Below, piece after piece: positions 24,971 through 51,076 of a DNA stretch of 51,076 nt. Numbering within the stretch: the stretch's first letter is position 1; each line of letters begins with the position of its first letter. The notes below the pieces were generated by a model. The model saw only the letters and a list, made by a program, of their open reading frames with translations. It was not told the DNA's origin and ran no database searches. A program made the position numbers and the translations under genes. This DNA comes from an uncultured Gammaproteobacteria bacterium (GTDB taxonomy: Bacteria; Pseudomonadota; Gammaproteobacteria; Steroidobacterales; Rariloculaceae). The DNA is taken from positions 1 to 51,076 of the forward strand of contig CAJWKT010000002.1 of assembly GCA_913041665.1 (NCBI GenBank), written 5' to 3'.

Positions 24971-25011
24971 GGAAGGTCCGGCCTGTACTGCGAATGGGAA
25001 TTACTTGGAAA

Positions 25012-25110
25012 ATTCCAGTCCCTTCGCCGGTACTAACCGGATCAGGTTCAAAGGGTTGACTGACATCCAGGCCAGCCTCTCAGACCGTTTCCGACCACCC
25101 CTCGGTAACA
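25012..25110 (-). promoter_or_regulatory. TPP (THI-box) riboswitch in the 5' leader of the TonB-dependent receptor gene
   Basis: The minus-strand RNA reads CCGAGGGGUGGUCGGAAACGGUCUGAGAGGCUGGCCUGGAUGUCAGUCAACCCUUUGAACCUGAUCCGGUUAGUACCGGCGAAGGGACUGG. It contains the conserved GGGGUG, CUGAGA and ACCCUUUGAACCUGAUCCGGUUAGUACCGGCGAAGGGA elements of the thiamine pyrophosphate aptamer. Confidence 0.85.
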
Positions 25111-25111
25111 A

Positions 25112-25126
25112 GCCCGCTACGCGGGC
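25112..25126 (-). terminator. Short GC hairpin between moaB and the riboswitch (possible weak terminator)
   Basis: The minus strand reads GCCCGC-GUA-GCGGGC followed by UUGUUA. The stem is 6 bp and perfect but the U-tract is poor. Confidence 0.25.
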
Positions 25127-38605: not shown

Positions 38606-38839
38606 TCAATAGCAAAAAGAACGAATTTTCTTTTCGTTAAAAACTTCCCTCGTTTAGTCAAAAAGAGCCACTTTTAAGAGCGCACTAAAGCCTCAAGTCT
38701 TTTATTAACCTCCACAGGTCTTTTGGGGATCCTGTTTTAAAAAATATTTCTCTGGATCTTGAAGCAGTTTTAGGACGTGCTTAGGTCTTTGGGAGCTACA
38801 TCACGCGCGCCGCGTATTGTAGGGCTTTCGGTAACGTAC

Positions 38840-39562
38840 TTACTTCTGAGCAATCCGTTGACGCGCACTGCTATTTACCAGACTAAGTTCCGCCCGGCGC
38901 TCCATAGCTAAACCATCTAAATCGCTTTCGTCTGAGCGGGAAAATTGCTCGCCATAAGAATCCAGGACAATACGACCCGAAGGTACACCAGCACGAATTA
39001 AAGCATCTTGAACCGCTAATGCACGATCAGCGGAAAGTTGTGCGTTGTACTCTACATTTCCCCGAGCGTCGGCAAATCCCTCTACACGAATCAACATCCC
39101 ATCCATATTAGCCAGCAATTTAGCCAGCTGCTCAAACCAATCCTGATTGATTTTGTCGAGATCGCTTTCTCCTGTTCTAAACAGTACTTGAACGCTCAAC
39201 ATTTGCTGCAGCGTATTCTGCATTTCTGCTGTGCCTTTTAGTAGTTCTGACTCAAGCCTAATCATTTCTTGTTCGCGCGTTTTAATACCGGCGTTTAAAA
39301 TTTCAGCCTCGTCCTTGAGCGCTTCCCAACGCTGCTCGAATTCCAACTTAGCTGTTTGCTCTTTATAGAACCTGTCTCCCAGCCAACTACCGAGGGCTGC
39401 GCCTAAAATAGACCCAACCGGACCACCAACGGAACCACCAAGAACTGCCCCGGTGCCAACCCCTATGCTTTCTTGTCTAGAAGGCGATCCTATTTCGTCT
39501 GCTAAACCCAAATCACTGATAGCAATCGTGCAAATCACAGTTAACAAAATGTATTTCATCAT
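38840..39562 (-). CDS. OmpA-like peptidoglycan-binding protein with signal peptide, glycine-zipper segment and coiled coil
   Basis: The signal peptide is MMKYILLTVICTIAISDLGLA. The glycine zipper is GVGTGAVLGGSVGGPVGSILGAALGSWLG. A heptad-rich region is KLEFEQRWEALKDEAEILNAGIKTREQEMIRLESELLK. The OmpA_C motif is RVEGFADARGNVEYNAQLSADRALAVQDALIRAGV. A strong SD (GGAGGAG) precedes the ATG. Confidence 0.8.
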   Translation of the reverse strand: MMKYILLTVICTIAISDLGLADEIGSPSRQESIGVGTGAVLGGSVGGPVGSILGAALGSWLGDRFYKEQTAKLEFEQRWEALKDEAEILNAGIKTREQEMIRLESELLKGTAEMQNTLQQMLSVQVLFRTGESDLDKINQDWFEQLAKLLANMDGMLIRVEGFADARGNVEYNAQLSADRALAVQDALIRAGVPSGRIVLDSYGEQFSRSDESDLDGLAMERRAELSLVNSSARQRIAQK

Positions 39563-39683
39563 TGCTGTCTCCTCCCGCTTTTAAAGATCTCTATGCATTG
39601 CCTCTCCATTAAAACGATCGACAACGACAGAGCAGCGATGAAATGAGACGACTAGAAAAAGGAACCTGACAAAATCTGACAGC

Positions 39684-40688
39684 TCAACGGGCCCGGCGAT
39701 GAGGAAGCGCAACAAAGGTGCCTCCATTTCTTTGGCAAAGCGCCCGCATAAGAATGGCGAATCGAGCAGCGGTTAACATGTCACCAGTGACCTCGAAAAG
39801 CACCGGAAAAGCTACGGCATGGATCCGTACCCGGCGCTCACCCCTCTCATCAGCGCGATTGCGGCGATCCACCTCCCTTACTACCCCATTGATCGACCCG
39901 GATGAAAAATCATCACTGTAAACATACAAGCTCACTCTTTTTTCAGGATCGTAGAAGCTCTCTATAGCGGTCAAGATGCCTTCTCTGGGGCTGGAGTTGG
40001 AGAATGCGTTCCAATTTCTCAAGGCATCCATGATCGCTTCCCGCCTAGCAGGCGTATCCGGAATCCACTCATTGCGGTAACTTTTAAACATATATTCGCC
40101 CATATCATTCAAAACCTGTATTCCTTTCACCTCAGGATAAACCTCGAGTGTTTCTTGCATCTGTTTCTGGACTCTATCCCAAGCGTACTGACGCATACTC
40201 CCCGAAGTATCAATGATAAAAACGATGTATTCGCTATCCACAGGTATACCGCCTATGTTGTAATCATCTGGATCCGGGCGGTAATCAGCTAACAGTCGCT
40301 GCATCTCCTCAGTCAGCCGTTGCTTAGCTAGCGCAAGCTGGCCTTGCAGTTCCGTATTGATGTCAGCGTTATCTCCAGTAGCCAAAAACTCGGAACGAAT
40401 TCTTGAGAGTTGTTCCTGTAAACGGGAGAGCTGTAAATTTTCTGAATCTAATTGCGTCACAGTAGAAATCTGCTCGCGCTCAACGATCTCGGTTTCTCCA
40501 CGGAGATCATTCAGTTCCTCCTGATAACGCGTAATCAATTCTTCAAGCTCTACATGACTCTCCTCAAGACGGATAGGCTCAAAAATCTTTGTTAAGACAA
40601 GCAAGAGAATGATAGCCCCAAAGCCACAGCATATTACGTCTAAAAAAGAAAGATTAAGTGTCTCCGTGTCGCGATCTTTTTTCCTCAT
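39684..40688 (-). CDS. ExbD/TolR-like TM anchor + coiled coil + vWA (MIDAS) domain protein, paralogue 2
   Basis: I prefer the start at nt 40688 (MRKKDRDTETLNLSFLDVICCGFGAIILLLVL). It has a GAGGA SD and forms an ATGA overlap with the upstream stop. The TM helix carries Asp17, as in ExbD/TolR/MotB. A coiled coil spans about aa 40-135. The vWA MIDAS motif is YIVFIIDTSGSM. Confidence 0.75.
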   Translation of the reverse strand: MRKKDRDTETLNLSFLDVICCGFGAIILLLVLTKIFEPIRLEESHVELEELITRYQEELNDLRGETEIVEREQISTVTQLDSENLQLSRLQEQLSRIRSEFLATGDNADINTELQGQLALAKQRLTEEMQRLLADYRPDPDDYNIGGIPVDSEYIVFIIDTSGSMRQYAWDRVQKQMQETLEVYPEVKGIQVLNDMGEYMFKSYRNEWIPDTPARREAIMDALRNWNAFSNSSPREGILTAIESFYDPEKRVSLYVYSDDFSSGSINGVVREVDRRNRADERGERRVRIHAVAFPVLFEVTGDMLTAARFAILMRALCQRNGGTFVALPHRRAR

Positions 40689-41782
40689 GGCCAATCCTCT
40701 GAAGGTGCCATCATGGATCCACCAGTAGTTAGCGAGAGCTGCCAATAAGCCGGCGCGGCCAAAGGATCCCCCTCCATCGCATAGAGAATCACATTCACCG
40801 GAATATTCAGGGGCAGCCGGCGAACAGCTCGTTCAAAATGATTAACTCGCTCCCTACTAGTTACGCCTGCCTGCGCCGGTACAACCTCACCCATAGTTGG
40901 TAGGCCATCTACAAGCAGATACAAATTATCGGGCTTTGGGTCTAAGGTTCTAGCAACGTCCATTGCCGCATGCAGGCTAGTCGGGCCTTCTGGTGATGTA
41001 TCTTTAAGTACCTGAACCGCCGCATCTAATTGGGCGCCATTCTCAACGGTAAGCCAGCGCCCGCCGGTACCATCCAACAACGGCCAAGCTTCTTTGTTAA
41101 AAGCATAAATCTGAAATTGGATACCGGGCGGAATCTGGGTAGTAAGCCAGTCCACCGTATTGACTACTTGTTGCCATTTGGGTGCCTGCAGTCTTTGCTC
41201 CACTGGCATATTGCGCCGCCGAATAATATTTACGATGGTACGATCCAGCATGCTTGTAGAAGCGTCTACTAAAATCAGTACGCGCTGCCCGCCCATTCGC
41301 AAGCCTGTTAAATACTGTCTATTCCCGTCACCCGTGAAACTACGAATACGGTTCCCCGCATCTTCCGGCGTAACGCTAGCCGCCGACAGCCTTTCATTTT
41401 CTTCTCTTAGATCATCAAGCTCTGACCTTAGTCGCTCGATAGCTTCTTTGCGAGTGCTTGTCTCTTCAGTTACAGAATTTAGCTCATTTTCTGTACTAAG
41501 AATTTCTTTCATAACCTCATCTCGCATTCCGGCCAGCACAGCCATATCTTTGATAAGCTTGGCTAGCTCATCCTTAAGTTGAACTAGATTTTTCTTTCCT
41601 GAAAGTACTCTTAACTCCATGCGGTCTACTTCACTACCAAGATCATCGAGCTCAAGCTTACTGCGCTCAGAGACATTGGCGTTAATCACCATGAAGAATA
41701 AAATGACTGCACCGAATCCACAGGTCATGGCGTCCAGAAAAGATAAGGAAAATACGTTTATCTTTTTACGAGCCACAATCAT
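40685..41782 (-). CDS. ExbD/TolR-like TM anchor + coiled coil + vWA (MIDAS) domain protein, paralogue 1
   Basis: The N-terminus is MIVARKKINVFSLSFLDAMTCGFGAVILFFMV. Compare ExbD INVTPFIDVMLVLLIIFMV. Asp17 lies in the TM helix. A coiled coil spans about aa 45-135. The vWA MIDAS motif is RVLILVDASTSM. Confidence 0.75.
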   Translation of the reverse strand: MIVARKKINVFSLSFLDAMTCGFGAVILFFMVINANVSERSKLELDDLGSEVDRMELRVLSGKKNLVQLKDELAKLIKDMAVLAGMRDEVMKEILSTENELNSVTEETSTRKEAIERLRSELDDLREENERLSAASVTPEDAGNRIRSFTGDGNRQYLTGLRMGGQRVLILVDASTSMLDRTIVNIIRRRNMPVEQRLQAPKWQQVVNTVDWLTTQIPPGIQFQIYAFNKEAWPLLDGTGGRWLTVENGAQLDAAVQVLKDTSPEGPTSLHAAMDVARTLDPKPDNLYLLVDGLPTMGEVVPAQAGVTSRERVNHFERAVRRLPLNIPVNVILYAMEGDPLAAPAYWQLSLTTGGSMMAPSEDWP

Positions 41783-43148
41783 TTCCTACGCTTATTACCC
41801 ACAACTCCTCACCAGGTGAACCGATACGAATGACATCTGCGGGACGCAGTGTGGTTTCAGCCGAAGCTCTCTTTTCGTTTACAAATGTCCCGTGACGACT
41901 GTGATCAATAAGCTTGACCTCACCATCACGCAAGACCAATTCACAATGTGAGCCAGAAACACCACTATGGTCTCCCTCAAGCACGATAGAGCGACGCTCT
42001 TTATCTTTAGTACGGCCAATTGATAGCCCCTCAGCATCCACGGGATATGCAATTCCCTTATAAACCACATGACTCGAACTGGCGTCTGGAGTTTTCTCTG
42101 AATCCTGAAAAACGTTTTTATCAACTGCAACCTGAGCCTGTTCACGCCATGGCACCCGCTTTAGCAGTTTGACCTGACCGCTTTTAGACTCAGCGGCTGG
42201 CATAGCTAACGCACCCATCACGGGTGCATCGGGTCCTAAACTCAACACAAGCGCATCATCTAAACGTTGTAATTCAGTCATTAGCCCAGGTAGTAAACCA
42301 AGATGGTGGGAAACCTGTACAACGAGACCAGCCCCACCTTGCCTAACCTGAGCTACTAGTTGCACCAGTGCACGATAAAAACCTGATGCGGCTGCCAACA
42401 GCTGCTCCCGCCGAACTTCAATCCGATGAATATCTTGGTAATGCTCCAGTTCGAATTCACATACATCTTTCTCTTGTATCGACTGTAGCCAACCCGGTAG
42501 GTAATCATATATAAGCTGCTCAGTATCAGCTCGATGAAGAGGGTCAAAGCGTGTTGCAAGAACGAAAAGCTCTGAAAACCGCTGGGCCCAAAGATCCATA
42601 ACACTTATCAGGCCAGTATTTTCCAGACCAATTTCTTGTAACGCCATTACGCTATCGCTCTGCTCTAATGGCGTCACAGAGACTCGGTGTAAGCCAACAT
42701 CTAGGTGAACAAGCTGCCGGCCCGGGTACGGTCGTGCGCTGACAGCAGCGGCTGAGCTTAACATCCCACTCACCCGAATTCCGATCTCTTGAGTTAACCC
42801 AAGTAATACACCCAATTGCTCGCGCGTGTAGTGATTCGGCACTATCAGAACAACATCGTCTGATTTATCCGCAATTTGGGTCCACAACGTTTTGAGCTGA
42901 GCATGAGCAAGTTCCGAGGCACTATCAATCCCTTCTACGCCCGCGGTATTACTGCCTACGCTCAAATTAGTCCAATAACGGCTACTCACCTGACTAGGCT
43001 TAACACGTGCTTGTCGAAGCGCCTCAGTGCCAGTGATAATGCGCCCATCCTCTACTAGCGCATAACCAGGCTCTCTAGCCAATACTTCCCCTTCGTGGGC
43101 AACCACCAGGCTTGCGTCATTGATGTCGATTGCGAGCGTGGCCATCAA
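41766..43148 (-). CDS. Degenerate Hsp70/actin-fold domain fused to a C-terminal FHA domain
   Basis: The N-terminal 350 aa follow the Hsp70 nucleotide-binding-domain motif order with degraded loops. These are LAIDINDASLVVAH, VVLIVPNHYTREQLGVLLGLTQEIGIRVSGMLSSAAAVS, LVHLDVGLHRVSV and VVQVSHHLGLLPGL. The C-terminal FHA is canonical: SIGRT...VSGSHCEL...LIDHSRHGTFVN...LRPADVIRIG. Confidence 0.7.
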   Translation of the reverse strand: MMATLAIDINDASLVVAHEGEVLAREPGYALVEDGRIITGTEALRQARVKPSQVSSRYWTNLSVGSNTAGVEGIDSASELAHAQLKTLWTQIADKSDDVVLIVPNHYTREQLGVLLGLTQEIGIRVSGMLSSAAAVSARPYPGRQLVHLDVGLHRVSVTPLEQSDSVMALQEIGLENTGLISVMDLWAQRFSELFVLATRFDPLHRADTEQLIYDYLPGWLQSIQEKDVCEFELEHYQDIHRIEVRREQLLAAASGFYRALVQLVAQVRQGGAGLVVQVSHHLGLLPGLMTELQRLDDALVLSLGPDAPVMGALAMPAAESKSGQVKLLKRVPWREQAQVAVDKNVFQDSEKTPDASSSHVVYKGIAYPVDAEGLSIGRTKDKERRSIVLEGDHSGVSGSHCELVLRDGEVKLIDHSRHGTFVNEKRASAETTLRPADVIRIGSPGEELWVISVGNDCGS

Positions 43149-43164
43149 TCAACTCTTGGAAATT

Positions 43165-43968
43165 TCAAGCTCCCCTAGTCTGCATGTGGCGAATTAAATT
43201 GTGGTCGACGTGAGTTTGAGCATCAAAAATGAAACGTTCCTGTAAAAGCTGTAGCTGATGGACAAGAAACATCACAACAATAGAAATCAAAAGCGCAATA
43301 AAAGTGGAGTTAAATGCGGTACCCAAGCTCTGGGTTACCCCCGCGATATCTCCATCTACAGCGCGGTGTGCCTGACCCAAAGCCTCACCGATTCCGCGCA
43401 CTGTTCCAATAAACCCCACAGAAGGTATAGCCCAAGCGATATAACGAATCATGGAAAGCTCGGACTCCAATCGTTCACCTTCCGACTCACACAAATTAGT
43501 TGCCACCGAGGATACATCTTGCACGTTACGTGTGGACCCAAACCGTTCAAGCGAAGAAAGCATGACCCTAGGAAGCAACATCTCTCTCAAACGCTCAGGA
43601 AGAGATTGAATGTTGCGAGCATACTCCCTTGTATCCTCCGGAAGAATGCGCACGCCCTCTTGAACTCGGACAAATTCTTGCTGCAAAAGAGCTCGTTCCT
43701 TAAGCGCCCGAAACGCTTTATAGCCCATAATGCAGAACGCCCAAATCATCAAAATAAAACAAGATTCCTGCTCGAAGTCCCGAATAATCACCCACACAGA
43801 GCGCTCTGGCGTGTAGTTTTCTTCTTGCTCAATACGTAGTATCTGCTCGGCCGCCACAGCAGCCGCTTTAGGCCTGACCACCGTAACGTAGACCGCATGC
43901 ACCACGATGATTGCGATAATTAGCGCAAACACTTGATAAACAAACTCAGCTGGAAAACGACGTTTCAT
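43165..43968 (-). CDS. MotA/TolQ/ExbB-family proton-channel protein
   Basis: 267 aa. Two N-terminal TM segments and a cytoplasmic loop are followed by the family signature IPSVGFIGTVRGIGEALG. Compare ExbB/TolQ P-lGL-GTV-GI. A final helix pair is AFNSTFIALLISIVVMFLV. A GGAGG SD is present. Confidence 0.8.
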   Translation of the reverse strand: MKRRFPAEFVYQVFALIIAIIVVHAVYVTVVRPKAAAVAAEQILRIEQEENYTPERSVWVIIRDFEQESCFILMIWAFCIMGYKAFRALKERALLQQEFVRVQEGVRILPEDTREYARNIQSLPERLREMLLPRVMLSSLERFGSTRNVQDVSSVATNLCESEGERLESELSMIRYIAWAIPSVGFIGTVRGIGEALGQAHRAVDGDIAGVTQSLGTAFNSTFIALLISIVVMFLVHQLQLLQERFIFDAQTHVDHNLIRHMQTRGA

Positions 43969-43992
43969 CAGATAATGCCTCCGGCTAAAAAC

Positions 43993-44208
43993 CTAAATAT
44001 CTATAGGAAAAATAACTTCTTCATCAGCTGCAATCTCTTCCGAGGGAATAAAGACATCAGTGTTTGGCGGGGTCCTTTCTGACTCAGGCTCCACCCTCGG
44101 GGGAGGTATCGCCTCCTCCACTTCTTGCTCATCTTCCTGGCCTAGCCCCAATGACAATAGACTCAGCAAGCTCCCCAGCACAAACACCCTAATCTTAAAA
44201 TTGATCAT
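43993..44208 (-). CDS. Small secreted acidic, proline-containing protein (71 aa)
   Basis: The signal-like N-terminus is MINFKIRVFVLGSLLSLLSLGLG. It is followed by an acidic/Pro-rich tail, QEDEQEVEEAIPPPRVEPESERTPPNTDVFIPSEE. It sits in a 290-nt slot between two operon genes. I see no obvious SD, so coding status is uncertain. Confidence 0.4.
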   Translation of the reverse strand: MINFKIRVFVLGSLLSLLSLGLGQEDEQEVEEAIPPPRVEPESERTPPNTDVFIPSEEIAADEEVIFPIDI

Positions 44209-44252
44209 TTTTTTTCATACCAGTTTGAAAGTTTAAGCAAAGTCTGATCCCA

Positions 44253-46718
44253 TCATTCCAGATTACGCGCAATACGAAAACCGAGGTCCTCTCGGGCACT
44301 ACCATTGTAGTCTCGGTAGGCAAGCCGAAGATTCGTCAGGGTAGCGCTAGTCCAGCTAGAACCTCGAACCACATGTAAACTACCAATTTCAGGGCCCAGA
44401 GGATCCTTGACGACTCCCTCTACGCCGATAGTCGCAATTTCATAGTAATCCTGCATCCATTCTGAAACATTGCCACCGAGATCAAAAAAACCAAGGAGAC
44501 TGGGCCCGAAACTCCCTACTGGCGCTGCTACCTGAAAGCTATCGTTATAAGTGATTAGTGTCGTTCTTAACAACTGAGAGGCACTAACATCAGCATAATT
44601 GCCGGTGCGATCCGGGGGAGGGAGCTCAGCTCCCCAAGGATAGATTAGAGCTTCCTCCCTTTCTGCAAATCGCGAAGCCCAGGCCCATTCAGCCTCTGTG
44701 GGCAAACGATAACCGTTGCGCACTGGACGTACCAATACCCGAGTTCCCTGCCGCTCCTCATATGCAGGCTGAAATCCGTCAGTAATGCTGAGCCAGTTAA
44801 GAAATTGCGCAACTTCTCCCCAAGTCACCCTCACCACAGGCTGATCATCTTCATCTAAAGAAACACCCGAAAAAGATCCCGAATTGTGTTCAGGTTTGAA
44901 CTTCCTGAATTCCGCGTTACTGACTTCCCGAGCACCTAGATAGAAAGCTGTACTTAACCTAACTGTGCGCATTGACTCATTTGAGCGGCGCCCTTGTTCG
45001 CGCCGCGATGAACCCATAATGAATTCACCTGGCAAAACAAGCAATAAATCCTGGCCTAAACTGGTCTCAACAACCTTTGGGTAACCGCTGCCAGTCGTGA
45101 CATCCAATTCCTCCAACTTAAACTCTAAGATTTGAGGAAAACCAGGACGAGGCGTTATCTCCACAGACTGGCTCGCAAAACCAGGATAACCAATTTCCAG
45201 CTGATGACTTATTGCCATAAGCATTAAACGAGTAGGTGTATTACCTTGGCGCTCACCATCAACCCAAATAGCTGCACCAGTTGGTTCGCTATTGATGCCT
45301 ACCTCACCCAATTGTGCAACTAGGTTGATATCCAGCTCCTGTTGACTATCAGCTGCAACGGACAATACCTGCATGACGGGATCGTAGCCTGGCTTAGTGA
45401 GTCCAATCTGATGATCTCGATCCGGAAGCAAGCCTAAAGTGAGGGGGGTTCGACCGCGATACTTTCCATCAACACTCACGACCGCATCAGCTGGATTGCT
45501 TGTAAGCTCCAATTGACCATCAGCCGGAGAAAGCATCACTAGCGGTAGCTCTAGAGGTTGGTCTGCATTCACTAAAATTGTGCTTTTCCAAATATTGAAC
45601 CCCTCGAGTCTTGCCTCAATTCGTCGTTCTCCAGCTGCTAGCTCCATGACTAAAGGCGTCCCTCCAAGGGACACGTCGTCTACAAAAACCCGTGCACTAA
45701 CCGGTTCAGTGATCAAAGTCACTGGTGACCAATTCGGCGTGAGCACGGCAGACATATTTTGTCTTTCACCTCCCCCAATGACCTCAAATTCTCTGATTTC
45801 TGATAAATATCGATCAGCCATAAACTCAAATCGGCGCAATCCAGTAGAAACCTCTGCATCCACTAGCGGCGCACTACCGAGCAGCTGGCCATCCACGTAG
45901 ACATCTGTATCTAAATTTGAATCAACCGAAACACTAATTAGCCCTGGTAGTCTCTTTAAAGAAAGTTCAAACGATTGATCCGGAGACAGTCCGACGTCGA
46001 TTTCAGTCTCCAAAGTGTGATATCCCAAAAGTGTAGCACTAATGCGATGCGTGCCGAAGCGAAGCAAATAGCGATCTGCAAGCTGGAGTTTGAAAAATGT
46101 ACCGGGAAGACTAACGGCTTCAGGTTGGGGCGTAAACACGAGCTGAACAGACTTAGCTGTAAATGCAAACCATCCGACAACAGCTAGCGTAACTAATCCA
46201 CTCCCCACTCCTAAAAACCTCTTGCTAGGTCTAAAAAAATGACTATCAGTTTGCTCTTTTAGCCTAGGACGAAACGCAACTGGTGCAATCTCAATATCAC
46301 CAAGGTCATCCGATTCCCTTGCTAGTTCCTCTAGGTCCGGCGGCACCGTATCACTACCCGTAACCTGAACATCAATCATAAGGCTCAAACGATTGCTCGA
46401 AAGCGTGCAGCTTAATCGAGCTGTGTCCAGAGCAATAATATCTCCATCCCGTAGCCAACGTGACCCAGATAATAGCTCTCCATTTATGCGAAGCCCGTTA
46501 GTATCTCGAGCTGGCAAAACGAAAAAAGCTTCATCTAACATGTCTATTTGTAAGGAACCGGAAACGTTGTTTAATCTCACATCGTCGGAAGGATTACCCC
46601 CTAACGAAACCGGAAGATGGTTAGCAGAAAAATATTTTTCTTGTCCACCTTCGGCCAAACACAACACCCATTTTTTACCATTACCGATCATTACGACTAA
46701 TTGATCCGTTCCACACAA
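44253..46718 (-). CDS. FHA - TM - PEGA repeats - FGE-sulfatase(SUMF1)-like domain protein
   Basis: A divergent N-terminal FHA spans aa 10-105 (LPVSLGG...TNGLRINGELL...LRDGDIIAL). One TM segment spans aa 168-187. There are four clear PEGA-like repeats plus one degenerate (VYVDGQLLGSAPL, VFVDDVSLGGTPL, VSVDGKYRGRTPL, IWVDGERQGNTPT). The C-terminal FGE-sulfatase motifs are VRVTWGEVAQFLNWLS, GYRLPTEAEWAWAS, GNVSEWMQD and VVRGSSW. The start may instead be M10 (nt 46691), 5 nt after the upstream stop. Confidence 0.8.
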   Translation of the reverse strand: MCGTDQLVVMIGNGKKWVLCLAEGGQEKYFSANHLPVSLGGNPSDDVRLNNVSGSLQIDMLDEAFFVLPARDTNGLRINGELLSGSRWLRDGDIIALDTARLSCTLSSNRLSLMIDVQVTGSDTVPPDLEELARESDDLGDIEIAPVAFRPRLKEQTDSHFFRPSKRFLGVGSGLVTLAVVGWFAFTAKSVQLVFTPQPEAVSLPGTFFKLQLADRYLLRFGTHRISATLLGYHTLETEIDVGLSPDQSFELSLKRLPGLISVSVDSNLDTDVYVDGQLLGSAPLVDAEVSTGLRRFEFMADRYLSEIREFEVIGGGERQNMSAVLTPNWSPVTLITEPVSARVFVDDVSLGGTPLVMELAAGERRIEARLEGFNIWKSTILVNADQPLELPLVMLSPADGQLELTSNPADAVVSVDGKYRGRTPLTLGLLPDRDHQIGLTKPGYDPVMQVLSVAADSQQELDINLVAQLGEVGINSEPTGAAIWVDGERQGNTPTRLMLMAISHQLEIGYPGFASQSVEITPRPGFPQILEFKLEELDVTTGSGYPKVVETSLGQDLLLVLPGEFIMGSSRREQGRRSNESMRTVRLSTAFYLGAREVSNAEFRKFKPEHNSGSFSGVSLDEDDQPVVRVTWGEVAQFLNWLSITDGFQPAYEERQGTRVLVRPVRNGYRLPTEAEWAWASRFAEREEALIYPWGAELPPPDRTGNYADVSASQLLRTTLITYNDSFQVAAPVGSFGPSLLGFFDLGGNVSEWMQDYYEIATIGVEGVVKDPLGPEIGSLHVVRGSSWTSATLTNLRLAYRDYNGSAREDLGFRIARNLE

Positions 46719-48217
46719 AAAATTTCAATCGGGCTTAGCGTACTCCCCGGCAATACTTCAAAAACGACACGCACATCTCGGTACCCAGCCCGGCTTCCCA
46801 GGGCTGTATATGGTCCAGGACGAATCTGCACGTGGTGGGTAATGAAGCTGCCTAGAGAGCCTACACGGTACAAAGTTACATTGGTGAGCTCATCAGAACG
46901 CAGTTCCACATCGATTGGCGTGGAGGCTAAACGGACCAGCCTGCCAAGCTCAGCAATCTGTCCGTTCAATCGTGGCCCCCTTCCATCTATTCCACGCGCA
47001 TCCTCCAAAAGAATGCCTGCATCTTTCAAAATTTGGTCGGCAAAAAGAACATCTGGGTTTCGGAAAAGACCTTCAAATTTGGCATCCAAGTCAGTCCTGG
47101 CCCGGGCGCGAGAAAGTCCTATCTTGGCAAATTCAAGGGAATCATCAGAATTTAATGCGAGAAGATATTGCTGAATAGCACGGTCCCATAACTCTCTTTT
47201 CTCAAAGGCAGTGGCCCGGACCTGCGCAAGAGCAATCTGCTCCAACCTTATACCCTGGTCTGCCTGAATCAATCCATCTAAAGCTTCCAAAGAATCAGGG
47301 CGCATCTTCAGTGCATCAGTAAAAAATTGATGGGCCTCTTCAAATTCCTCTTCGGCCAAAGCATTCAGTGCCACAGAAACCAGTGAGTCAAATCTAGCAT
47401 CGGCGATGCGACGAGTCGCGTTGGCTACAGCCAATCTGGCAGGGATCCAAAGCGAGTCAAGAATCGCCGCATTACGGTAAAGCTCTAGGGCACTAACGAG
47501 GTCACCGTTCTGGTCTCGCTCTGCACCCTGCTCCATATGAGCCAACACGTTGGGTAATATTTGTGCTCTTTCTAATCCACTCTGACTATCAACATGGTCC
47601 GCTTCTATACGTAAAACTAACTGAAACTGCTCCGCCGCTAGAGATGGATTGCCGGCAGCAAGGGCCTCATTACCTGCTTCTAAAGCTCGGTCAATAATGT
47701 TTTTAGACCTAGCAAGCAAAGAAATTCCTAAATCGAGCGCTGCTTGGTAGCTAGGCACAGCATCATAAAAGGCATCTGCTAAAAAAGCGTCATCGCCATC
47801 CCGAAACAATGTCTGATAAAGATCCCAATCCTCACCAGCCCAATTTGCTGCACCCTGCGCCTCTAATAGGCCCTGCTGTTGCAATAGTTCAGCTAGCAGC
47901 GCCTCGGCCTTATCGCGCAAAATGTCCAGTTCTTCGGGTGACATTACCAAAACCCCTGAATTTGACTCAGAAGGAGGTGCAGATTGCTCTACCATTTCGG
48001 TAGTGGGTACCTGCTCTGCTACCCAACTAGGCAGCAAAAAGATCACTCCCAATGCCAAGGACGCCAAAACGATTAATGCTGAAACAACTAATTTAAAGCT
48101 ATAGTTCCGATCCTTGCTATCCAACGACGTGGACGCAACAAAATTTTCCTTTATACCGGACCTGACCGGAACAATGGTTTCATCATGTTCTGGTTGGTTA
48201 GAATTCTGTTTTTTCAC
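46697..48217 (-). CDS. Single-pass membrane protein with TPR-like helical repeats and a C-terminal beta (PEGA-like) domain
   Basis: It has a GTG start with a GGAG SD. A cytoplasmic tail of about 40 aa precedes the TM segment FKLVVSALIVLASLALGVIFLL. The long Ala/Leu-rich helical repeat region contains AGNEALAAGNPSLAAEQFQLVLRIEADH and EEAHQFFTDALKMRPDSLEAL. The C-terminus reads IRPGPYTALGSRAGYRDVRVVFEV. Confidence 0.7.
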   Translation of the reverse strand: MKKQNSNQPEHDETIVPVRSGIKENFVASTSLDSKDRNYSFKLVVSALIVLASLALGVIFLLPSWVAEQVPTTEMVEQSAPPSESNSGVLVMSPEELDILRDKAEALLAELLQQQGLLEAQGAANWAGEDWDLYQTLFRDGDDAFLADAFYDAVPSYQAALDLGISLLARSKNIIDRALEAGNEALAAGNPSLAAEQFQLVLRIEADHVDSQSGLERAQILPNVLAHMEQGAERDQNGDLVSALELYRNAAILDSLWIPARLAVANATRRIADARFDSLVSVALNALAEEEFEEAHQFFTDALKMRPDSLEALDGLIQADQGIRLEQIALAQVRATAFEKRELWDRAIQQYLLALNSDDSLEFAKIGLSRARARTDLDAKFEGLFRNPDVLFADQILKDAGILLEDARGIDGRGPRLNGQIAELGRLVRLASTPIDVELRSDELTNVTLYRVGSLGSFITHHVQIRPGPYTALGSRAGYRDVRVVFEVLPGSTLSPIEIFCVERIN

Positions 48218-48230
48218 AACTCCGCCGATG

Positions 48231-49121
48231 CTATCGCCAAAATGCTATAACTGATTCTAAGACATCTAAAAAAACATGCATGCTCTTTGGGCGGCGACTT
48301 GGGTCTGGTCCCAGCGTTGCGTGAACCAATTCAGCCAGCTCAGAAAATGCCGAACTACTGTCCGATGGGCCTAAGGGGAGTGCTGGGGGCCCTGGACACA
48401 CCAACGAGGGACTAACACCGAATGGTAAACAGCCTGTAATGAGTTCATAGAGCAACGCCGCAAACGCATACATATCATCAGCCACTGCTGGCACCTCACC
48501 CCGGCGGTGACCCGGGCTCTGATAAGCCGGTGTCCCTCCACCTTTTAAAGTTCGGCAATTTAGAGGCTCCGCCAAGGCAAAATCTACTAGGTACGCTCCC
48601 TGGTTACTATCAAAGAGAACATTGCGTGGCTTAACGTCAAGATGGACCATGCCTTGATTGTGAATATATTCCAATGCACTAGCCAAATCTCTAGCCGCAC
48701 CCGCCCAACAACGAGGATGGGCTCCGCATAGAGATACCAAATCCCCTTCACCTAAATATTCCGTTATTAATGCTGGGCTCCCGCCCAGAGTAATCAAGTC
48801 AATCACTACTGATACGCAAGGATGATTCAGAGAATTGAGAATTTCGAACTCACGACGAATCAATTCTTGGGCACCAAAGTCTCGGATCACATCCGATCTT
48901 GGTAGTTTGATAGCCACGACACCCCCATCCGGAGCTTCTGCCCTCCATACTTGTGACATACCACCAGCCCCGAGAAATGCAATGAGACGAAACCCTCCTG
49001 ATAAAATACTACCTGGTAGAAGGACCTCCTGATGATGGGTGTTTCTCAGAATATCGGCCGAAACTACATTAGCAAAGCCTAGTTCATTCTGGTTAATAGT
49101 ACGCTTATAAATAGTACCCAT
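48231..49121 (-). CDS. Soluble Hanks-type Ser/Thr protein kinase (non-RD, DFA variant)
   Basis: The Gly loop is LGAGGMSQVW and the catalytic Lys is in VVAIKLPR. The catalytic loop is HLDVKPRNVLF (HRD changed to HLD). The metal loop is DFA instead of DFG. The P+1 region is GTPAYQSPG. There is no TM segment. Confidence 0.85.
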   Translation of the reverse strand: MGTIYKRTINQNELGFANVVSADILRNTHHQEVLLPGSILSGGFRLIAFLGAGGMSQVWRAEAPDGGVVAIKLPRSDVIRDFGAQELIRREFEILNSLNHPCVSVVIDLITLGGSPALITEYLGEGDLVSLCGAHPRCWAGAARDLASALEYIHNQGMVHLDVKPRNVLFDSNQGAYLVDFALAEPLNCRTLKGGGTPAYQSPGHRRGEVPAVADDMYAFAALLYELITGCLPFGVSPSLVCPGPPALPLGPSDSSSAFSELAELVHATLGPDPSRRPKSMHVFLDVLESVIAFWR

Positions 49122-49159
49122 GGGGATGTCTTTGGTACAGTGAGCCCCGGATTTTGAAC

Positions 49160-50503
49160 TCAGGTGTCAGTCGCTACACCTGTATCGACCGCCTCCAAAT
49201 TCATGTCCTCGTTTTGGCCCACTGATTCGCTACCTGACGTAGTCTCGGGAACTGCGATAAGTTCCAATTCACTTGGTGGGGGTTCCGTATATATCGACAT
49301 ATCTGCAGGCAGAAGCCCAGTCTCTGAGACAAATAGATCTTTTAATAATTGACGCCATTCCTGATATTGCACATCTGCCGTTCCCGTCAGACGATGTTGT
49401 GTACCCTCAATCTCTACCACCATCGGCCTGACTTCATCATCGAAGCTGCTAGAAAGCTCTTCGAGGGTTTCTTCGTGTAAACGCTTCTCCTGCTTTCGGA
49501 TAGCACCAGTCTTAATCATATCCATCCCCATGTACATCAAGGCATCCCGCACCATACGATCTGAGAAACCATCACCATCACTTTGGCTGCCATAGACTAC
49601 GGAAGCCACCACTGTTGCTATACCAAGACCGGTCCGCCACCGAGTGGATCGGTGCAATTCCTTTATGGCAATTGCCTCTTCACGTGAAAATTGGCGCCAT
49701 CCATCATAAGACTCAATGGAATCTTGATAGAACTGATCGTAATGCTGGTTCAAGGTTTCCACAAACAAATGTTCTCGCTCTCGAATCCGCTGGGTCCGAC
49801 CAAACATTGGATCTCCTTCAGCAGGTAAGCGCCTAAGCTCATATTCCCCCCGATTGCTCTGAACAACGTGCTCTCCAAAAACCTCCGGACTTAGCTCTCC
49901 CGCAAAACGCAGCTGGGCTATAGACCTGATTTTCTCGGCCTCGTTGACAGCCAACTTCCCCTGTACCGTTGCCAAGTCGTTTGCGATAGAGCTAAAAACA
50001 TCCTGATAAGGATCCAAACCCCCAAATCTTTGCCGGTTGTAGGCCCCGGCTGCAGTACCCATACCATATTCACCATCCAACCAAACGCGACCGGAAGCAT
50101 CAACGGCTTTCACATACAGCAAAAACTCATCCCCATCGGATCTCAGAATCTCAGCCATAACATTGACATCTGCCGCAGTGGAGGCTGAGGGCGTAACCCA
50201 TACCGCACCCCAATGACCACTCTTCTGCAGCGTGTCTCTCAGGGTCACTGCCATATAACGAGCCTCGGTTCGGCGAATGTAAATGAAAGTGCCATCTCTA
50301 ATAAGCTCCTCCAAAATCTCTTTATCCACCTCACCTTCGGGAACCCCCGAACCAAAAACAGCTATACCAACGTCGAGCAGCTGCTCTTCCGGAATAGACC
50401 GGGTGGCAGGTACCAAATCGACCGAGTGAGCTAAGCGAACCTCATTACTTGTGCATCCCGAAATAAGTCCCGCTACCACAAAAAGAAAATAAATCACCCG
50501 CAT
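49160..50503 (-). CDS. Lipoprotein of unknown function (447 aa)
   Basis: The lipobox is in MRVIYFLFVVAGLISGC. I recognise no domain. There is an internal hydrophobic stretch (GLGIATVVASVVYG) and an acidic Ser/Thr-rich C-terminal tail. Confidence 0.7.
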   Translation of the reverse strand: MRVIYFLFVVAGLISGCTSNEVRLAHSVDLVPATRSIPEEQLLDVGIAVFGSGVPEGEVDKEILEELIRDGTFIYIRRTEARYMAVTLRDTLQKSGHWGAVWVTPSASTAADVNVMAEILRSDGDEFLLYVKAVDASGRVWLDGEYGMGTAAGAYNRQRFGGLDPYQDVFSSIANDLATVQGKLAVNEAEKIRSIAQLRFAGELSPEVFGEHVVQSNRGEYELRRLPAEGDPMFGRTQRIREREHLFVETLNQHYDQFYQDSIESYDGWRQFSREEAIAIKELHRSTRWRTGLGIATVVASVVYGSQSDGDGFSDRMVRDALMYMGMDMIKTGAIRKQEKRLHEETLEELSSSFDDEVRPMVVEIEGTQHRLTGTADVQYQEWRQLLKDLFVSETGLLPADMSIYTEPPPSELELIAVPETTSGSESVGQNEDMNLEAVDTGVATDT

Positions 50504-50519
50504 AGAAAGCTACCTCACT

Positions 50520-51076
50520 TCACTGGCGAGCCAGAATTTTATTGTATTCGTTATATTCTTCCCACAGAGCTGCACGAAGAAATGGATCCTCTTCCTCGGT
50601 TGCCGCCTCACACAATTGGCGCGCAACTGTATCGTCGTCCTCACAACCTTCCACTAATGGCGTTGTTTCTTCATTCGTGGTTTCGTCAGCGCGAAAAGAT
50701 TGATTTTCCCTGCTATTACTGGAATCTCCGCCGCCGCTTTGGCCTACGGGGACATCAGGAGAACCTCCAACCTCTGCTGTTTGGCCCAAAATCTCATCTG
50801 CAGCCGTACCTATGCCAGCACGTGCCATAGATGCCCGCTCTGCACCCATAATCCGATCAAAATCCTCAAGGGAACGATCAAATTCGTCGTCGCCACCTCG
50901 ACCTTGCTGGCCTGCACCTGCCTGAGTTCCCTCAGGCCAGCTGCCGGTCTGACTACCCGCTGTTTGCTCTTCGCCCTGCTGACCAGACTGGCTACCCGGT
51001 GGCATCTGAGGGCCACCCGCTGTTTGCTCTTCGCCCTGCTGACCAGACTGGCTACCCGGTGGCATCTGAGGGCCAC
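50520..51076 (-). CDS. Gly/Gln/Ser/Glu-rich tandem-repeat protein with an acidic C-terminal domain; the 5' end probably lies outside the window
   Basis: The reading frame is open through the window edge. The codons upstream of the first listed Met read GPQ and continue the repeat. A 20-aa unit, MPPGSQSGQQGEEQTAGGPQ, occurs twice exactly. The C-terminus is DDTVARQLCEAATEEEDPFLRAALWEEYNEYNKILARQ. Confidence 0.6.
   Translation of the reverse strand, partial: GPQMPPGSQSGQQGEEQTAGGPQMPPGSQSGQQGEEQTAGSQTGSWPEGTQAGAGQQGRGGDDEFDRSLEDFDRIMGAERASMARAGIGTAADEILGQTAEVGGSPDVPVGQSGGGDSSNSRENQSFRADETTNEETTPLVEGCEDDDTVARQLCEAATEEEDPFLRAALWEEYNEYNKILARQ
50955..51076. repeat. Perfect 60-bp tandem direct repeat (at least 2 copies, truncated by the window end), in frame within the CDS
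   Basis: Positions 50955-51016 are identical to 51015-51076, which is 62 nt at a 60-nt period. The unit is ccgctgtttgctcttcgccctgctgaccagactggctacccggtggcatctgagggccac. Confidence 0.95.

Follow-up and report, generated by a model that had tools for sequence, protein, structure and literature searches.

An eleven-gene cluster most likely encodes a proton-driven machine that acts across the cell envelope. It occupies positions 38840–51076 of the window, which is the whole 51,076-nt stretch of DNA analyzed. The cluster can be placed, with fair but far from complete confidence, in the TolQ-like/"TPH-vWA" family of putative 5:2 ion-driven motors, with whose Idiomarina exemplars it is matched by described architecture, and here the motor is accompanied by envelope partners. 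The motor core is not new. A TolQ/ExbB-like channel and a TolR/ExbD-like Asp helix that continues into a coiled-coil stalk with a vWA head were predicted in 2025 (PMC12204202, Fig. 4c-d), with a tolQ-like gene, a heterologous "TPH-vWA" gene pair, a conserved Asp, a Thr ring, and a 5:2 AlphaFold 3 model (PMC12204202). The original prediction of an undescribed system therefore fails for the core and stands for the partner genes, which the text of PMC12204202 does not mention. These partner genes, a phosphorylation control, and the function that we infer for the cluster are newly reported or proposed here. No phenotype has been reported in the literature for this family.

Organization of the gene cluster

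The cluster comprises eleven close-packed open reading frames, all on the minus strand and all where the original prediction had placed them. Its gene inventory, coordinates, and domain calls were all confirmed or refined by profile HMM and structure-model searches. Among the profiles it proposed, MotA_ExbB, OmpA, Pkinase, PEGA, FGE-sulfatase, the FHA of g08, and the VWA of g10 were recovered, but HSP70 and ExbD were not; in the window copies, the vWA of g09 and the FHA of g05 fell below threshold and the TPR of g04 was weak.

In transcription order, the genes from g01 to g04 are separated by gaps of 16, 38, and 13 nt. The g04/g05 junction is a 22-nt overlap if g05 begins at the TTG at 46718, or a 5-nt gap if it begins at the ATG at 46691. 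Gaps of 44, 24, and 16 nt follow at g05/g06, g06/g07, and g07/g08, then a 17-nt overlap of g08 and g09, an ATGA overlap of g09 and g10 (ATG 40688–40686, TGA 40687–40685; g10 starts at ATG 40688), and a 121-nt gap before g11. From this packing, we infer that the eleven genes form one operon. A simple scan of 38500–39800, which includes the 121-nt gap, found no promoter-like site, and terminator-like sites occurred at chance level, every one within g11.

The channel and the TPH-vWA pair

The channel subunit g07 (43165–43968, 267 aa) is TolQ/ExbB-like and is presumed to form a pentameric stator. It matches MotA_ExbB in Pfam (2e-13), and its top NCBIfam match is TolQ. The pore threonines of E. coli TolQ, T145 and T178, align with T189 and T222 of g07, and 81 of 81 sequences have both. 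A homology search yielded more than 8000 sequences, and the best 120 show at least 78% identity. As originally proposed, the channel lacks a separate ExbD/TolR/MotB partner: these families gave no match on the ten complete genes g02–g11 in Pfam and NCBIfam, and none on g01 in Pfam.

The partner helix is found instead in the two vWA proteins, g09 (40685–41782) and g10 (39684–40688), which are full-length paralogues (hhalign 99.6%, E 1.9e-23, 315 columns) and occur as a pair wherever the block is found. Both have the predicted architecture, in which an N-terminal TolR-like transpore helix bearing an almost invariant Asp in an L-D-V context leads into a coiled coil of ~100 residues, capped by a vWA head whose MIDAS is complete. 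In g09, Asp17 is conserved in 72/74 orthologues, as is MIDAS residue D173, while S175, S177, and D292 are present in all 74. In g10, D17 and D259 are each conserved in 71/72 sequences, and D160, S162, S164, and S232 in 72/72.

Domain searches agree with these residues to different degrees. The g09 vWA is detected as VWA_2 in 24/24 orthologues (best 4e-9), and a g09 profile gave only coiled-coil matches in the PDB. The g10 VWA match passes narrowly (4.2e-5, 24.1–24.3 bits against a cut-off of 23.8), and its family contains 1232 clusters at 50% identity. The AlphaFold2 model of g10 has helices at residues 15–134 and a vWA fold at 150–330 (pLDDT ~85–94); the coiled-coil part, modelled as a monomer, is of low confidence (pLDDT 31–65). 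Foldseek matches this model to the vWA domains of ITIH1, Rpn10, alpha2-delta, VWF-A3, and CMG2 (E 3e-8 to 1e-4).

Envelope partners of the motor

The g05 protein (44253–46718) contains a degenerate FHA-like domain, a TM helix (residues 168–186), three stretches of PEGA repeats (3.2e-38), and an FGE-sulfatase-like head (2.2e-38, Pfam). The N-terminal FHA match is below threshold (E 0.0047, 17.8 bits against a cut-off of 20.7). Its canonical phosphothreonine-binding Arg is absent family-wide, with G, T, or A in its place, and the orthologue in locus L078 matches Yop-YscD_cpl (1.2e-4), of the YscD type, which is non-phospho-binding. The last 120 residues of g05 contain no Cys, so that the FGE catalytic Cys pair is absent and the head is non-catalytic. 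In NCBIfam, this part resembles GldK/PorK (8.6e-26), with 91 bits against a family cut-off of 350.

Two lipoproteins are encoded at the start of the cluster. The g01 frame (50520–51076) is open to the window edge, where a 60-nt unit occurs twice in perfect tandem (50955–51076). The encoded protein has tandem repeats rich in P/Q/G and an acidic C-terminal region with two Cys. The complete gene is available from a 96%-identical relative, locus L001, where MSKFFKVFPIVTGLALGLVAC provides the signal peptide and lipobox. Upstream of g01 in this relative are divergent genes, one cysK-like and one for a 148-aa protein, and therefore the cluster begins at g01. The PP2C phosphatase suggested to lie beyond 51076 is, judged from this relative, not found before g01, and the cluster itself has no phosphatase gene.

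The second lipoprotein, g02 (49160–50503), is an acidic protein of 447 aa with no Pfam, NCBIfam, or PADLOC match, and a 25-sequence profile gave no meaningful sequence match in the PDB. Its co-linear homologues are 32–93% identical. In E. coli, lipoproteins are sorted to the outer membrane by a +2 rule; the g02 lipobox, LISGC, is followed by Thr at +2, and by this rule g02 is probably anchored in the outer membrane.

The small secreted peptide g06 (43993–44208, 71 aa) had been treated as incidental. However, a small ORF with a signal peptide lies between g05 and the channel gene in 72/74 loci, and Methylophaga, Kineobactrum, and two distant clusters encode the peptide as well. It belongs to the conserved core. 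It has no Pfam match, and its variable middle is followed by the C-terminal motif F-x-P-[ST]-E-x-[IVL]-x-A-D-x-x-[VIL]-x-F-P-[VI]-D-I-COOH, of which the end, F-P-[VI]-D-I, is near-invariant (P at -4 in 31/31 representatives, D at -2 in 28/31, and I at -1 in 29/31).

The last gene, g11 (38840–39562), encodes a secreted protein with Gly-zipper and OmpA (3e-16) matches in Pfam, a coiled coil, and an OmpA-like peptidoglycan-binding domain. Its top NCBIfam match, PdsO, reaches 124 bits against a cut-off of 152, and Pal reaches 57 against 125. It has no Asp-bearing TM helix of the MotB type.

Kinase, sensor, and FHA reader

The soluble Hanks-type Ser/Thr kinase g03 (48231–49121; Pkinase 9.7e-28, Pfam) has invariant catalytic residues K72, D162, N167, and D180, with K164 in 30/31 orthologues. 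The window copy is of the non-RD type (HLD), with DFA where DFG is expected; g03 is predicted to be active. Its neighbour g04 (46697–48217) is a single-pass membrane protein with one strong TM segment (residues 43–61), a TPR-like region in the periplasm, and a beta-rich C-terminal region. The TPR assignment is above the cut-off in the L078 orthologue (TPR_2, 29.3 bits), and g04 homologues also occur in Methylophaga and other distant clusters. One ORF encodes both kinase and TM-TPR protein in ~25 loci that are more distant, and g03 and g04 can therefore be read as the cytoplasmic and sensor halves of a split receptor kinase.

The g08 protein (41766–43148) is cytoplasmic, with no TM segment predicted. 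Its N-terminal 330 residues adopt an Hsp70 nucleotide-binding-domain-like fold in the AlphaFold2 model (pLDDT 88), and Foldseek ranks Hsp70 NBDs highest against this model (E 3e-18 to 1e-15; TM-score ~0.7 on target); the protein has no match to the HSP70 HMM. The position of the Hsp70 phosphate-2 motif GGGT reads G-L-H-R, which makes it doubtful that g08 is an ATPase. Its C-terminal FHA domain (6.9e-13, Pfam) keeps canonical residues R379, S398, H401, and N424 in the window copy. Of the two FHA proteins originally thought to read phosphothreonine, g08 thus remains a candidate, but g05 does not.

Distribution and inheritance

The block is syntenic in 80 uncultured Gammaproteobacteria genomes and co-linear in essentially every one of these 80 loci wherever the flank is sufficient, which is far beyond chance and disposes of a fortuitous juxtaposition. 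Cultured Halieaceae and Methylophaga carry it too, and co-linearity extends to Methylophaga, Kineobactrum, and two clusters in which the identity of the vWA proteins falls to 33–36%. Across the 80 loci, a g01 homologue upstream of g02 is present in 53, g02 in 61, g04 in 70, g05 in 78, g08 in 69, and g11 in 35. The universal core of the block consists of the channel, the vWA pair, the TM-TPR protein, the TM-PEGA-FGE-like protein, the small secreted peptide, and usually two lipoproteins. Three further components, namely the kinase, the Hsp70-NBD-like-FHA protein g08, and the OmpA-like g11, have been added in particular lineages. The kinase and g08 genes are absent from many family members, with Methylophaga among them, and g08 is missing from other distant clusters as well. 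Therefore, phosphorylation is not central to the motor mechanism, and control by threonine phosphorylation is not the defining trait that it was thought to be.

No copy was found in 72,556 plasmids or 50,697 phages, and housekeeping flanks are kept in the close clade L001–L028, in agreement with the expected lack of mobile association. The block is chromosomal, and its inheritance within this clade appears vertical, since the flanks are conserved, plasmid and phage copies are absent, and the channel is ~80% identical across many species.

Proposed mechanism and alternatives

By analogy with Myxococcus AglR5-AglQ-AglS, five g07 subunits would surround a g09/g10 heterodimer. Proton flow through the Asp/Thr site would rotate or pull the coiled-coil stalk, so that a single polypeptide would serve as both motor partner and force transducer, the roles of TolR plus TolA. 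The vWA heads would extend to the peptidoglycan or outer-membrane zone, where their metal site may bind a cis-encoded acidic ligand, for which the candidates are the ...FP[VI]DI-COOH terminus of g06, the acidic lipoproteins g01 and g02, and the FGE-like head of g05. The g05 protein may be a GltG-like partner, with its degenerate FHA beneath the channel and a PEGA stalk placing the non-catalytic head in the periplasm. In this lineage, the split receptor kinase (periplasmic TPR of g04 plus g03) would phosphorylate a threonine that the canonical FHA of g08 reads, which would gate or localize the motor. The machine probably serves to maintain or tether the envelope and not for defence, and this is the weakest step of the model.

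It is also conceivable, though unlikely, that the cluster is mainly an envelope-state sensor like P. aeruginosa TagQRST-PpkA-Fha1, in which the channel with its vWA stalk would serve as mechanosensor or tether and signal its engagement to the cytoplasm; the true output would be threonine phosphorylation, which g08 would read before acting on an unlinked target. The vocabulary of that pathway is indeed shared (Hanks kinase, FHA, periplasmic vWA, FGE-like periplasmic domain, outer-membrane lipoproteins), many genomes fuse the kinase to the periplasmic TPR sensor, and the g08 FHA is canonical. However, many members keep the full periplasmic and channel core without the kinase and g08, the cluster has neither phosphatase nor obvious output gene, and the near-invariant proton-pathway residues Asp17, Thr189, and Thr222 favour an energized machine over a passive sensor.

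An energized machine could also drive surface motility, adhesion, or secretion by the logic of Agl-Glt gliding or type IX GldLM-GldK, with a surface component moved or exported through a g01/g02 outer-membrane complex. Agl-Glt unites a TolQR-like motor, an FHA-TMH partner, TPR proteins, lipoproteins, and a vWA adhesin; GldLM drives the ring lipoprotein GldK/PorK, to which the g05 head is similar; and the cluster has PEGA and OmpA-like cell-envelope domains. This is nevertheless quite improbable, as the GldK match is far under its cut-off, the ten complete genes include no outer-membrane beta-barrel, translocon, or secretin family (Pfam, NCBIfam), and the vWA domains here are inner-membrane anchored rather than surface-exposed. 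In addition, some hosts are planktonic marine lineages for which gliding is not known. Very little probability is given to anti-phage defence of the Zorya kind, in which envelope damage at infection would be detected by a stator-like complex anchored to peptidoglycan, which would then trigger a response. ZorAB is likewise a 5:2 MotAB-like unit, and PADLOC gives weak matches to ZorA (E 0.008) and ZorB (1.4e-12; g11 residues 95–235, mostly the OmpA-like domain) and matches g03 to many defence-associated kinase models. Yet these kinase matches are generic Pkinase, no nuclease or effector accompanies the short channel, and the housekeeping flanks shared within the close clade, the channel identity among species, and the plasmid and phage searches form a pattern unlike patchy, mobile defence islands. 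A TolQ-like/TPH-vWA motor with envelope partners remains the preferred reading.

Comparison with known systems

TagR is an FGE-like periplasmic protein. In P. aeruginosa, PpkA has a periplasmic vWA domain, and TagR acts on the PpkA C-terminal domain (PMC3224232). A Zorya, Tol-Pal, or T6SS locus was rejected, as the original prediction had done; for Zorya, the excluding features are the ZorA tail and a ZorC/ZorD-like gene, both absent here. In Tol, Ton, and Mot, the TolR/ExbD/MotB partner is separate, whereas here the Asp helix is carried on the vWA proteins. The view that systems of this type never have FHA or vWA proteins does not survive comparison with Myxococcus Agl-Glt, in which GltG is an FHA-TMH protein docked on the TolQ-like AglR pentamer and CglB is a vWA adhesin (PMC11761067). 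Agl-Glt also provides a precedent for a heterodimeric TolR-like pair and an FHA-TMH partner on a TolQ-like pentamer (PMC11761067).

Organization of the Cluster

Eleven open reading frames, termed g01 to g11 in transcription order, occupy the minus strand at 38840–51076. They encode two lipoproteins (g01 and g02), a Hanks kinase (g03), a membrane-anchored TPR protein (g04), a protein combining an FHA-like domain, a TM helix, PEGA stretches and an FGE-like domain (g05), a 71-residue secreted peptide (g06), a TolQ/ExbB-like channel (g07), a protein joining an Hsp70-type nucleotide-binding domain (NBD) to an FHA domain (g08), two vWA subunits with a transpore helix (g09 and g10), and an OmpA-like protein (g11). 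The original prediction described this anatomy largely correctly, and the finding is real. Its list of junctions also holds: gaps of 16, 38 and 13 nt come first, followed, beyond the g04/g05 junction, by gaps of 44, 24 and 16 nt, a 17-nt overlap, an ATGA overlap (g10 starts with the ATG at 40688) and a 121-nt gap. The g04/g05 junction is a 22-nt overlap if the TTG start at 46718 is used and a 5-nt gap if the ATG at 46691 is used. From this close packing, we infer that the eleven genes form an operon. A scan of 38500–39800, around the 121-nt gap, found no promoter or terminator above chance, and Rfam found no RNA element within the cluster.

The g01 gene is open at the window edge, where a perfect 60-nt × 2 tandem repeat (50955–51076) encodes the PQMPPGSQSGQQGEEQTAGG repeat of the lipoprotein. 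The middle part of g01 varies between relatives. Its missing end is supplied by L001, a 96%-identical uncultured gammaproteobacterial MAG, in which g01 encodes a lipoprotein (…LALGLVAC…). In L001, divergent housekeeping genes lie upstream of g01, so the cluster starts with g01. The original prediction suggested looking beyond 51076 for the operon start and a PP2C phosphatase gene; in L001, no such phosphatase gene precedes g01.

On the 3′ side, the cluster is followed by bioD, a bioF-like gene, a phosphomannomutase gene and other housekeeping genes. Elsewhere in the window, a TPP riboswitch at 25001–25112 (−), scoring 67.8 bits against a gathering score of 54.3, lies immediately 5′ of a TonB-dependent receptor gene (Plug domain) at 22805–24970 (−), which suggests thiamine-regulated outer-membrane uptake by the putative receptor. 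The window also contains one tRNA-Leu (CAA) gene at 1020–1106 (+), and its G+C content, about 0.48–0.50 over most of its length, dips to 0.41 at 22001–24000 and 0.44 at 14001–16000.

The Channel and the vWA Pair

The g07 protein matches the Pfam family MotA_ExbB (2e-13), and its nearest NCBIfam model is TolQ, although its 28.6 bits against the TolQ equivalog fall far below the cut-off of 221. By alignment, residues T189 and T222 are the counterparts of T145 and T178 of E. coli TolQ, and they are kept in 81 of 81 sequences. The channel gene is followed by g08 and then by g09 and g10; in loci that lack g08, the vWA pair comes immediately after the channel gene. None of the ten complete proteins g02 to g11 matches an ExbD, TolR or MotB profile in Pfam or NCBIfam, and g01, compared with Pfam only, likewise has no match to these three. 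For g09 and g10, no match to ExbD/TolR (PF02472) was found at E < 0.01, and the likeness is confined to the TM helix motif. Both proteins begin with S-F-L-D17-x-x-x-C-G-F-G-A, in which the context of D17 corresponds to the L-L-D23-V context of E. coli TolR. This aspartate is kept in 72 of 74 g09 and 71 of 72 g10 orthologues. The transpore helices contain neither His nor an SHLS motif.

The window copy of g10 lies barely above the Pfam VWA cut-off and that of g09 below it, and PDB sequence profiles returned only coiled-coil matches. The vWA identity, which the PDB profiles left unsettled, is settled by Pfam on orthologues (24 of 24 g09 orthologues match VWA_2) and by Foldseek. In the AlphaFold2 model of g10, three long helices (15–134) precede a confident alpha/beta domain (150–330), which resembles solved vWA domains at E values of 3e-8 to 1e-4. 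The MIDAS residues (D-x-S-x-S...S/T...D) are at least 97% conserved in g09 and g10, except for S269 of g09 (61 of 74), and D160, S162, S164, S232 and D259 do not vary at all among 79 diverse members of the family. The two proteins are full-length paralogues (hhalign 99.6%, E 2e-23) with about 20% identity between their family profiles, and both are found wherever the contig is long enough. Five family representatives of 700–760 residues (P0300, P0316, P0325, P0356 and P0371) carry a g10-like vWA domain at the C-terminus; these may be fusions of both paralogues or gene-calling read-throughs. The g11 protein is OmpA-like (3e-16) and has a Gly-zipper, and it contains no Asp-bearing TM helix.

The PEGA-FGE-like Protein, the Small Peptide and Lipoprotein g02

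The g05 protein contains three PEGA stretches and an FGE-sulfatase-like domain, each at about 1e-38 in Pfam. Formylglycine-generating enzymes carry their catalytic Cys pair near the C-terminus. The g05 protein fits the fold profile of these enzymes (2e-38), but it cannot be one of them, because its last 120 residues contain no Cys.

Two phosphothreonine-binding FHA domains had been proposed for the cluster, and this stands for g08, in which the canonical residues are present (R379, S398, H401 and N424 in the C-terminal FHA domain of the window copy; 7e-13), but not for g05. The N-terminal domain of g05 scores 17.8 bits, below the FHA cut-off of 20.7; in 72 orthologues G, T or A stands in place of the canonical Arg, and neither the Ser nor the His is conserved. 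A g05 orthologue matches a YscD-type cytoplasmic domain. The g05 FHA domain is treated here as degenerate and probably structural. In some lineages the FHA-like domain is kept on g05 with no kinase or g08 in cis, and in others it is lost and g08 lies ahead of the channel gene. Among individual loci, the PEGA-FGE protein of L036, L051, L054, L056 and L059 has about 692 residues and a TM helix near residue 35, with no FHA-like domain. The Hsp70-like-FHA gene is upstream of the channel gene in the first four of these and keeps its downstream position in L059. In the cultured Kineobactrum salinum (CP048711.1; locus L084, 4483–6556), the PEGA-FGE gene is called as fragments of 249 and 229 residues separated by an opposite-strand ORF. 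A frameshift, pseudogene formation or faulty assembly may lie behind this, and the point bears on the choice of a genetic host.

Between g05 and the channel gene, 72 of 74 loci have a small ORF with a signal peptide. In the window this is g06 (43993–44208, minus strand), and its counterparts in other loci include L081:7996–8136, L084:6569–6793, L086:7628–7921 and L087:7888–8049. Its last 19 residues follow the pattern F-x-P-[ST]-E-x-[IVL]-x-A-D-x-x-[VIL]-x-F-P-[VI]-D-I-COOH, of which the terminal [FL]-P-x-D-I is retained even in the most distant clusters. The middle is hypervariable, being acidic in the window and basic in some relatives. The predicted peptide is a core part of the cluster. 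Lipoprotein g02 has a lipobox and belongs to no family in Pfam or NCBIfam; its sole PDB match is one short, unconvincing stretch.

The Kinase, the TPR Protein and the Hsp70-fold FHA Protein

The g03 protein is a Pkinase match (1e-27). Four of its residues (K72, D162, N167 and D180) never vary and a fifth, K164, is kept in 30 of 31 sequences, which accounts for the catalytic Lys, the HxD...K..N loop and the Asp of DF[GAS]. The genes g03 and g04 are separate in the clade of the window. In about 25 more distant loci they form a single ORF, for example L031:2101–4431; these fused loci are L030–L035, L040–L041, L044–L053, L060, L064–L065, L068, L071 and L074. Because of this single ORF, g03 and g04 are predicted to make up one split receptor kinase, with the TPR part as its periplasmic sensor.

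The g08 protein had been called Hsp70-like, and in this case structure prediction rather than sequence searches settled the matter. None of 24 orthologues matches HSP70 (PF00012) in Pfam, and a PDB profile search returned just matches to Ssz1 at E values of 0.2–0.4. Foldseek nevertheless aligns the g08 model (pLDDT 88) to Hsp70 NBDs at E values of 3e-18 to 1e-15, with a TM-score of about 0.7 on the target. The Hsp70 phosphate-2 motif is D-L-G-G-G-T. In g08 it reads D-x-G-L-H-R, and the phosphate-binding motifs are divergent. Moreover, there is no substrate-binding domain, and the C-terminus is the FHA domain. What survives of the earlier name is thus the fold; the HSP70 profile match, the substrate-binding domain and the intact phosphate motifs do not.

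Conservation and Distribution

More than 8000 homologues of the channel are detectable, and the identity of the best 120 is 78% or higher. Across 80 genome loci, all eleven genes are co-linear wherever the contig is long enough, and synteny on this scale rules out a chance juxtaposition. All 80 loci are MAGs, mostly of Gammaproteobacteria, including Ca. Rariloculaceae. As raw detection counts over the 80 loci, matches were found for g05 in 78, g09 in 75, g10 in 73, g04 in 70, g08 in 69, g02 in 61, g01 in 53, g03 in 44 and g11 in 35. In the closer clade, the neighbouring cysK-like and bio genes are conserved as well.

The wider family is large. At 50% identity, the g10 family falls into 1232 clusters with E ≤ 1e-3, of which 293 reach E ≤ 1e-30. 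In a genome collection with one genome per species, at least 470 confirmed stretches encode a relative of the channel. Cultured carriers are found in Methylophaga, Haliea, Kineobactrum and Seongchinamella, and further carriers are MAGs assigned to Halioglobus and Parahaliea.

Methylophaga and two distant clusters, the latter with vWA proteins just 33–36% identical, keep the channel, the vWA pair and the small peptide, together with a PEGA-FGE-like protein that has no FHA domain. At the g04 position they encode proteins of 478, 390 and 536 residues, assigned by position alone and with no recorded Pfam match. No kinase, g08 or OmpA-like gene is present in these three. The predicted universal core is therefore made up of the g04-position protein, the PEGA-FGE-like protein, the small peptide, the channel and the vWA pair. 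The putative phosphothreonine module is a lineage-specific addition.

A Published Putative Motor Family and the Extended Gene Set

The cluster had been presented as an undescribed system built on a proton-driven stator with vWA-tipped subunits. The one relevant description is found in Origin and Evolution of Bacterial Periplasmic Force Transducers (Mol Biol Evol 2025, Fig. 4c–d; PMC12204202), which predicted the same motor core, so that this part of the claim to novelty falls. That work describes a TolQ-like/TPH-vWA family (a transpore helix, a coiled coil and a vWA head) in Proteobacteria and Verrucomicrobia, with function unknown and no phenotypes, and its AlphaFold 3 models place the Asp of the transpore helix within the threonine ring. 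There are several likenesses: a tolQ-like gene adjoins a pair of heterologous membrane-tethered vWA genes, no tolR, exbD or motB gene is present, an Asp is conserved in the transpore helix and a Thr ring in the channel, and both occur in Proteobacteria. Of the seven defining features, which also include homology to the Idiomarina loihiensis exemplars and a predicted 5:2 complex with the helices inside the pentamer, five are found here. The central model of the original prediction amounts to this published one and agrees with it to that extent.

The text of PMC12204202 covers the motor and the vWA pair only. It does not include the TM-PEGA-FGE-like protein, the TM-TPR protein and kinase, the lipoproteins, the peptide with its C-terminal motif, the Hsp70-like-FHA protein or the OmpA-like protein. 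A full-text literature search found no paper on the extended cluster, and an eLife 2020 vWA-MoxR paper, a Ferrigenium preprint and an mBio 2025 MotAB survey proved unrelated to it. Neither the conserved gene set beyond the motor nor the peptide motif appears to have been reported before, and the same goes for the split kinase and the variable phosphothreonine module; to this degree the claim of an undescribed system stands.

Proposed Mechanism and Significance

We propose that the gene products form an inner-membrane 5:1:1 motor in which two coiled-coil stalks would pair as a heterodimer to make the axle, each ending in a metal-dependent adhesion (vWA) head. The stalk of about 100 residues, which we estimate at roughly 15 nm if fully helical, would be long enough for the peptidoglycan or the outer-membrane zone. 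Partners of the motor would be the GltG-like PEGA/FGE-like protein, the TPR protein, the dedicated secreted peptide and the outer-membrane lipoproteins. In this lineage, the split receptor kinase and the Hsp70-fold FHA reader would tune it.

A tentative reading of the function is that a further proton-driven machine spanning the envelope, similar to Tol but with a mechanism of its own, is widespread in marine and sediment Gammaproteobacteria, with an adhesion-headed axle, its own peptide or lipoprotein ligand and a kinase switch. In such a machine the rotating axle itself would bear the adhesion heads, which would capture the secreted peptide (or the lipoproteins) via the ...FP[VI]DI-COOH end, and in some lineages it would be switched by the receptor Ser/Thr kinase and the Hsp70-fold FHA reader. 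If true, this would be an unrecognised envelope function with its own ligand and eukaryote-like control.

To our knowledge, ion-driven 5:2 motors (MotAB, ExbBD, TolQR, GldLM, ZorAB and AglRQS) are the only known means of delivering energy to the Gram-negative outer envelope, and each one that we know of opened a field when it was discovered. The present putative motor family is large and housekeeping-like in its conservation, and it has never been studied by experiment. With this analysis, a prediction that took up one paragraph in print becomes a list of parts that can be tested. It comprises six to eight core genes, a putative partner resembling GltG, the two-part receptor kinase and, as candidate ligand, a peptide whose C-terminal motif is sharply defined; cultured hosts for genetics are available in Kineobactrum, Haliea, Seongchinamella and Methylophaga. 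If the vWA heads are the force-delivering end of the axle, they would represent a new solution to periplasmic force transduction.

Comparison with Known Envelope Systems

With Tol-Pal (TolQ-TolR-TolA-TolB-Pal-CpoB), the cluster shares a TolQ-type channel (with counterparts of T145 and T178 kept), a partner helix that bears an Asp, and a long, helical stalk in the periplasm that ends in a globular head. Both also have a TPR protein and an OmpA-like peptidoglycan binder, and both are conserved in the manner of housekeeping genes. In contrast to Tol-Pal, the roles of TolR and TolA would be combined in one polypeptide, and the head is a vWA domain rather than TolA domain III. Among the NCBIfam equivalogs, no match to TolA or TolB was found, and g11 scores 57.5 bits against Pal_lipo, for which the cut-off is 125. 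In addition, g04, g05, g09 and g10 differ from TolA and TonB in having no SHLS-type helix, because their TM helices contain no His.

Defence of the Zorya type is a very improbable alternative. Zorya (ZorABCD/E) also has a non-flagellar 5:2 stator-like unit with peptidoglycan binding, and PADLOC reports ZorA at E 0.008 on the 267-residue protein as well as ZorB on residues 95–235 of g11, mostly the OmpA-like domain. However, the cluster has no long ZorA tail, PADLOC finds no ZorC, ZorD or ZorE in it, and it is chromosomal and housekeeping-like rather than on a mobile island. A defence system is rejected on two grounds: the PADLOC matches are only of generic kinase and OmpA/ZorB type, and no copy of the cluster exists among 72,556 plasmids or 50,697 phage genomes. 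The housekeeping-like conservation favours a role in envelope maintenance over defence. A pure sensor is less improbable than defence, though still unlikely. The threonine-phosphorylation pathway of the P. aeruginosa H1-T6SS (TagQRST, PpkA, PppA and Fha1) reports envelope state with parts that the cluster also has: a Hanks kinase and an FHA reader, a vWA domain and an FGE-like domain that both lie in the periplasm, and lipoproteins of the outer membrane. In the cluster, these domains are spread over different polypeptides, a proton channel is present, and there is neither a PP2C phosphatase nor an ABC transporter (TagST). No T6SS core genes or PppA-type PP2C were found in the cluster genes, upstream in L001 or in ten flanking window genes, a scan that lies outside the ORFs of 1–17800 and 19500–22750. 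TagR has an FGE-like fold. In P. aeruginosa, the periplasmic vWA sensor domain of PpkA is acted on by TagR (PMC3224232), which suggests that FGE-like and vWA domains may recur as interaction partners.

A motility or secretion engine is, in our estimate, a little less probable than a pure sensor, and it has counterparts in two further systems. Like the proposed motor, GldLM (PorLM) of the type IX secretion and gliding system is driven by ions, has 5:2 stoichiometry and extends a long shaft into the periplasm, where it acts on a non-catalytic FGE-like protein, GldK (PorK) of the ring; an OmpA-like anchor (PorE) is also part of the system. However, the sequences of GldL and GldM show no relationship to TolQ or the vWA proteins, and the type IX system is one of the Bacteroidota. 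Moreover, GldK is a lipoprotein of the outer membrane, while the anchor of g05 lies in the inner membrane. In the Agl-Glt focal-adhesion gliding machinery of Myxococcus, the vWA domain belongs to CglB, a lipoprotein on the outer-membrane surface, instead of the motor axle; AglQ and AglS lack any coiled-coil-vWA extension, and no homologues of the Glt outer-membrane barrels were seen in the cluster. The likenesses to Agl-Glt include TPR proteins, lipoproteins and the presence of a vWA domain in the system. Moreover, its motor (AglR5-AglQ-AglS) offers a precedent for the one proposed here, since a TolQ-like pentamer holds two different TolR-like subunits, and its GltG protein has an FHA domain immediately ahead of a TM helix and docks under the pentamer (PMC11761067). 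GltG parallels g05 in architecture, each having a cytoplasmic FHA or FHA-like domain straight before the TM helix and a long periplasmic extension.
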